Shown here: piece after piece, positions 19,464 to 19,482 of the stretch
How the letters are laid out: each line of letters begins with the position of its first letter
Position numbering within the stretch: position 1 is the stretch's first letter
Assembly: GCF_016903815.1 (NCBI RefSeq)
Contig: NZ_CP069973.1
Length of the DNA: 64,000 nucleotides
DNA from: Escherichia coli
GTDB taxonomy: Bacteria; Pseudomonadota; Gammaproteobacteria; Enterobacterales; Enterobacteriaceae
Reading direction: 5' to 3' (one strand)
Made by a program: the position numbers and the translations under genes
The notes under the pieces: model-generated
Told to the model about the DNA's origin: nothing
Database searches by the model: none
The model's input: the letters and a program-made list of their open reading frames with translations, nothing else

Positions 19464-19482
19464 GGCGAGGCGGGGAAAGCAC
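19464..19482. other. cos site (19-nt cohesive end GGCGAGGCGGGGAAAGCAC)
   Basis: Matches the P2 cohesive-end sequence as I recall it, in the expected position next to portal gene Q. Confidence 0.5.

Follow-up and report, generated by a model that had tools for sequence, protein, structure and literature searches.

The sequence GGCGAGGCGGGGAAAGCAC at positions 19464-19482 (plus strand) of the window, the whole 64-kb stretch of Escherichia coli DNA analyzed here, raises the question whether a short word in a GC-rich block is a genuine phage cos site and, if so, which element it belongs to and whether that element could use it. In the record of phage P2 (AF063097; NC_001895), the features cosL (bases 1-19, 'left cohesive end') and cosR (bases 33575-33593, 'right cohesive end') both read ggcgaggcggggaaagcac and are identical to the window sequence. 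The 19-nt 5'-protruding end of P2-related phages is printed as 5'-GGCGAGGCGGGGAAAGCAC-3' (PMC3931495), in agreement with the proposal in the earlier note that the 19-mer is the P2 cohesive-end sequence. Alignment with the P2 cos region, which that note had named as a check, returned the exact 19-mer with homologous flanks on both sides. A chance match unrelated to packaging, for which nothing speaks other than the general GC-richness of the block, has a negligible probability. Arithmetically, ~5e-7 exact occurrences of such a 19-mer are expected in 64 kb on both strands; the sequence occurs only once in the window, with no further match even when three mismatches are allowed (shuffled sequences gave 0.02 matches at this setting), and homology to P2 cos extends over both flanks. 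We therefore ruled out coincidence on the uniqueness of the 19-mer in the window and the homology of its flanks.

The predicted position of the cut agrees with the termini of database records. A megablast search with window segment 19250-19750 against phage records matched 75 records of the Peduovirus type, and base 1 of P2, Wphi, fiAA91-ss and others aligns at query position 215, which corresponds to window position 19464. A further search at higher sensitivity showed that at least 13 different linear Peduovirus records begin or end exactly at this base: P2, Wphi, fiAA91-ss (in which cosL is annotated there), L-413C, R18C, HQ103, P24A7b, P24E6b, P24B2, VB-YPM-4, vB_YpM_117, vB_YpM_476A and P2_AC1. 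The record of vB_YpM_476B has an end at query position 83, equivalent to window position 19482, at the opposite edge of the 19-mer. The homologous 19 nucleotides of phage 186 are annotated in its record with 'top strand cut at 5' end and bottom strand cut at 3' end'. The cohesive-end segment is assigned to 19464-19482 on identity to P2 cosL and cosR, the annotation of 186 and these record termini. We consider it highly probable that the site is the cos (packaging origin, cohesive-end site) of a P2-like (Peduovirus) prophage that appears intact and lies at the start of pflA.

To delimit the conserved region, the window, the circularized P2 junction, P4 and 186 were anchored at the nick and compared in an ungapped alignment. 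All four share a block of exactly 55 bp (19435-19489, plus strand), starting with TGCATTAAAA 29 bp before the nick, continuing through the 19-mer and ending with TGCGCGC, 7 bp to its right. With its boundaries placed by this alignment, the core is presumed to be the terminase recognition and cleavage region, common to P4 and 186. Passages in PMC2231350, PMC9594776 and PMC3931495 credit a '55-bp cos' to Ziermann & Calendar 1990, and passages in the first two describe the 55-bp cos and the 19-bp ends of P2 and P4 alike.

Conservation of the core was also assessed in viral contigs. Scanning IMG/VR for the exact 19-mer gave at least 120 contigs, and 115 contexts were classed by their genes (P2 Q and P versus P4 psu, delta, sid and alpha, identified by tblastn on the viral contigs); the matches listed comprise 93 distinct P2-like and 17 distinct P4-like contexts. 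Among these matches, columns with the same base in at least 80% of both groups (P2-like, n = 93; P4-like, n = 17) span 19429-19489, and the window agrees at 52 of the 52 columns conserved in both, of which the 19 central ones are invariant by construction, the contigs having been chosen for the exact 19-mer. The three departures of the window from the P2-like consensus in or at the core (19434, 19445 and 19451) all fall in variable columns. To the right of 19489, no column is conserved in both the P2-like and the P4-like contexts among the matches listed. A helper/satellite recognition element in this region was considered and rejected, as the T-rich similarity seen in a crude split of the contigs was gone after gene-based classing.

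Two symmetrical sequences lie at or within the core. The inverted repeat CGCCC-N8-GGGCG (19446-19463) is located inside the core and abuts the top-strand nick. It scored as terminator-like on the minus strand, its stem columns are mostly conserved and its loop columns (19451-19454) are variable. The repeat could contribute to a protein-binding site or form a weak hairpin. A structural role of the hairpin is unsupported, since two of its pairs are disrupted in 186 with no compensating change. At the left edge of the conserved block, across its boundary, the window has a perfect 12-bp palindrome, ATGCAATTGCAT, at 19428-19439, where the consensus of the relatives is the imperfect ATGCAACTGCAT; the symmetry is perfect because of a C-to-T difference at the variable column 19434.

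Compared with P2 cos, the 19-nt end is identical, and the 29-bp left part of the core differs at 19445, 19451 and 19452. The right flank is ~95% identical as far as Q, the terminase is identical or nearly so, and the neighborhood is alike, with a cargo hotspot to the left and the tQ terminator and the Q-P operon to the right. In contrast, the cargo on the left is unrelated (a retron and an FRG gene versus old and tin in P2), the spacer on the right has two 1-nt indels and a few substitutions, and the immunity and integration module and the att site differ. The cos of 186 (NC_001317; Eganvirus) likewise has a 19-nt 5' overhang and conserved flanks, and adjoins the portal gene (W), but its end, GGCGTGGCGGGGAAAGCAT, has two mismatches to the window sequence and its flanks are more diverged.

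The cos of P4 (NC_001609) has the identical 19-mer, at the start of the record, and keeps the core as TGCATTAAAA.CGCCC....AAGCGGGCG to the left and GCGCGC to the right; P4 DNA is cut by the same P2 terminase (PMC9122126; PMC2231350). The 19-mer is followed by C in P4 and by T in the window, and outside the ~55-61-bp core the sequences are unrelated; the P4 site is flanked by psu to the left and by the gop/beta/cII hotspot to the right. Since P4 and the 17 distinct P4-like contexts among the matches listed share both the 19-mer and the core, the site could in principle be owned by a satellite of the P4 type, or by some other hitchhiking element, beside the phage genes. We regard such an owner as very improbable: the window is ~95-98% identical to P2 over 13 kb to the right of the core, starting from P2 base 1, the flanking genes are P2 A (left) and P2 Q (right), and there is no second cos-like site in the window at three mismatches.

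The surroundings of the site have the layout expected of the P2-like phage to which we assign it. From left to right, the order is gene A (13533-15821), cargo (16001-19139), cos (19464) and Q (19652-20686, minus strand), which places the cos between an accessory hotspot on the gpA side and the 3' end of Q, as in the layout described for P2-like phages, with a cos-adjacent hotspot between gpA and gpQ (PMC9122126). The Q stop codon is 169 bp from the site, consistent with the claim in the earlier note that cos adjoins the portal gene. GC content is 56-65% over 19400-19700, where the top strand is G-rich, versus 28-39% in the cargo region to the left, and the boundary is sharp at the 19-mer (28-38% GC over 19250-19450). 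The P2 annotation has no CDS in bases 1-186, the equivalent of this block, and RefSeq has no feature at 19140-19651 in a genome identical to the window over that stretch. Two mechanically called ORFs of 50-53 aa (19352-19504 and 19452-19613) were rejected as genes: neither P2 nor RefSeq annotates any there, and their frames are broken by two 1-nt indels relative to P2 in ~95% identical sequence. The GC profile, the annotations and the indels together uphold the description of the block as GC-rich and non-coding.

Between cos and the end of Q lies a G-rich non-coding spacer (19483-19651), ~95% identical to P2 bases 20-186 apart from the two indels. It contains a tQ-like terminator of the P-Q operon (19631-19646, minus strand) with the hairpin GCCGCCTGCGGGCGGC followed by a T run; P2 has the terminator tQ annotated at 160-181. 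Neither a structured RNA nor a known retron ncRNA family was detected when the segment 15500-19800 was searched against Rfam at E<=1. The portal protein gpQ is identical to that of P2 at 341 of 343 residues (99.4%). Next to Q, the gene for the terminase large (ATPase) subunit gpP (20686-22458, minus strand) encodes a protein identical to P2 gpP at 590 of 590 residues (100%), and gpM, the terminase subunit named small or endonuclease in RefSeq (24618-25361, plus strand), is identical at 244 of 247 residues (98.8%). The cognate terminase (gpP and gpM) and the portal (gpQ) are thus encoded by the same prophage as the cos.

The prophage extends from 9814 to 43281. Its att core is a 13-bp direct repeat, ACCAATAACTGAC, present at 9814-9826 (attL) and 43269-43281 (attR), and it is flanked by two host genes on the minus strand, pflA (9088-9885) and pflB (43475-45757). 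The predicted excised circle has 33,455 bp, 99.6% of the 33,574 bp of P2. The gene order is int-C-cox-B-A-cargo-cos-Q-P-O-N-M...D-ogr. The distance from cos to attR is 23.8 kb, or 71% of 33,455 bp, and attP in P2 lies at 24.36 kb of 33.57 kb (72.6%); together with the P2 gene order, this matches the permuted prophage map that the earlier note had anticipated. As judged by sequence comparison, the prophage carries a P2-type cos in its normal P2 place, a kind of site that is already known, and it raises no new question about packaging.

Integration has taken place within the first five codons of pflA, at the core ACCAATAACTGAC. The native pflA start, ATGTCAGTTATTGGT, is left behind at attR, and the start codon at attL has become AAG. 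The pflA ORF at attL extends to a phage-derived ATG at 9885, giving 265 aa versus 246 aa, and pflA is now 33 kb away from pflB.

Whether the cos could be used depends on the prophage around it. All 30-odd essential P2 genes are present in the window (tblastn), full length, without stops and collinear, with 93-100% identity to P2; the exception to this range is the tail fiber gene H (32195-34219), with 67%. With tblastn, the P2 genes fun(Z), old, tin and orf91 had no match in the window. Identities to P2 are lower in the integration and immunity module (9917-11778), at 53% for Int, 48% for C and 35% for Cox, and the prophage is therefore heteroimmune, with a different att site. Homologues of 186 CI, Tum, Apl and CII were not found, and the immunity module encodes Cox and a C repressor that is short and of the P2 type. 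Lysogens of this type are not known to be SOS-inducible. With a P2-type C repressor and Cox and no homologue of CI or Tum, SOS induction is therefore not expected to work; the induction named in the earlier note for obtaining virion DNA may be difficult, and virions would have to come by a different route. By sequence, the element is a mosaic relative of P2 that differs in immunity and att site and probably has a different host range.

The same pflA/int junction between prophage and host recurs in 404 of 5,426 complete E. coli genomes, a frequency suggestive of an element that spreads actively; the cos region itself is carried by roughly 2,150 E. coli genomes. Apart from 28834-29810, the window and E. 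coli 7/2 (NZ_CP023820) are collinear at 99.2-99.6% identity. Equating it with the prophage of E. coli 7/2 was rejected, since this holds only up to 28.8 kb, where cargo is swapped at 28834-29810; for this reason, the genes of the window were themselves checked for integrity. The swapped segment holds P2 orf30 (28900-29685, minus strand; phrog_2407), 98.9% identical to P2 Orf30, and E. coli 7/2 has an unrelated 347-aa hypothetical gene in its place. Situated between genes S and V, the segment adds a third variable slot.

These features bear on the possibility that the site is a true P2-type cos by descent in a prophage that is defective or never excises, and thus a silent relic. In favor of a relic, the identity of Int, C and Cox to their P2 counterparts is only 35-53%, and therefore activity cannot be inferred from P2; in addition, P2-type prophages are not known to be inducible by the SOS response, and no Tum-like antirepressor was found in this one. 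Against a relic stand the 30-odd full-length essential genes at 93-100% identity, the intact att cores, a size of 99.6% of P2, the unmutated conserved columns of cos and the recurrence of the same junction in 404 of the 5,426 genomes. We consider a relic improbable on this balance.

For the cos of an intact prophage, cutting at this site in this strain would be expected by homology, and we infer the nick positions, the use of circles as substrate and the use of this copy from the biology of P2, P4 and 186. The prophage would be excised by Int and Cox and replicated by gpA and gpB. The gpP/gpM terminase would recognize the ~55-bp core (19435-19489) on the 33.5-kb circular phage DNA and introduce staggered nicks 19 nt apart, in the top strand between 19463 and 19464 (5' of G19464) and in the bottom strand between 19482 and 19483, after the base opposite C19482. 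This would leave 5' single-stranded ends, with GGCGAGGCGGGGAAAGCAC at the left end of the virion DNA and its complement at the right end. The unit-length linear genome with 19-nt 5' cohesive ends would then be threaded through the gpQ portal into the procapsid, and after injection the ends would anneal and be ligated, which would recreate cos. The principle is the same as in phage lambda, where terminase makes staggered nicks at cos (cosN/cosB/cosQ) and the resulting 5' cohesive ends anneal after injection. Lambda differs in having 12-nt ends of unrelated sequence and in packaging from concatemers, whereas P2 and P4 are reported to package preferentially from covalently closed monomeric circles (PMC2231350).

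To the left of cos, between gene A and the core, lies a cos-adjacent cargo hotspot (15822-19434), which corresponds to the 'TO region' of P2 and was annotated with PADLOC and Pfam. In place of old and tin, it contains a candidate retron ncRNA, the genes for an HTH_VI and an RT_VI protein, and an FRG/PDC-S15 gene on the minus strand. The type VI retron (16040-17666, plus strand) comprises an HTH protein (16418-16750; PADLOC HTH_VI, E=7e-30) and a reverse transcriptase (16716-17666, plus strand; PADLOC RT_VI, E=1e-105). Upstream of these genes, the segment 16040-16300 has nested inverted repeats and an unusually strong predicted fold (-89.8 kcal/mol, z=-3.36), and is a candidate msr-msd ncRNA. 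This segment matches no Rfam family at E<=1 and overlaps a mechanically called ORF of 130 aa (16001-16393). The FRG protein (454 aa; 17775-19139, minus strand) matches Pfam FRG (E=2e-21) and the PADLOC candidate defense family PDC-S15 (E=9e-98). Its gene has the position and orientation of P2 old and is divergent, and its AT-rich promoter region (19140-19430) reaches the cos core. A second slot for defense cargo is found between the tail-fiber assembly gene G and the sheath gene FI, where P2 has fun(Z); it is occupied by the Shedu nuclease SduA (35039-36265, plus strand; PADLOC E=1e-219; Pfam SduA_C).

Homology to P2 stops at the left edge of the cos core: in P2 and other relatives alike it ends within ~30-36 bp to the left of the nick, with unrelated cargo beyond. 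It has been speculated that terminase-generated or freshly injected cohesive ends are an entry point for recombination (Rousset et al. 2022, PMC9122126). Exchange of the adjoining defense cargo driven by cos has been raised before, and the break in homology seen in the sequence fits this published speculation. We regard it as unlikely, though worth keeping in mind, that cos itself drives this exchange, and the locus could be one test case.

The value of the assignment lies mainly in annotation. The site defines position zero on the map of the virion DNA, and the prophage can thereby be oriented against P2. The cos marks the right boundary of a defense hotspot that holds a type VI retron and an FRG/PDC-S15 gene. 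The element that carries it could be packaged, and it could help P4-like satellites with the same cos.
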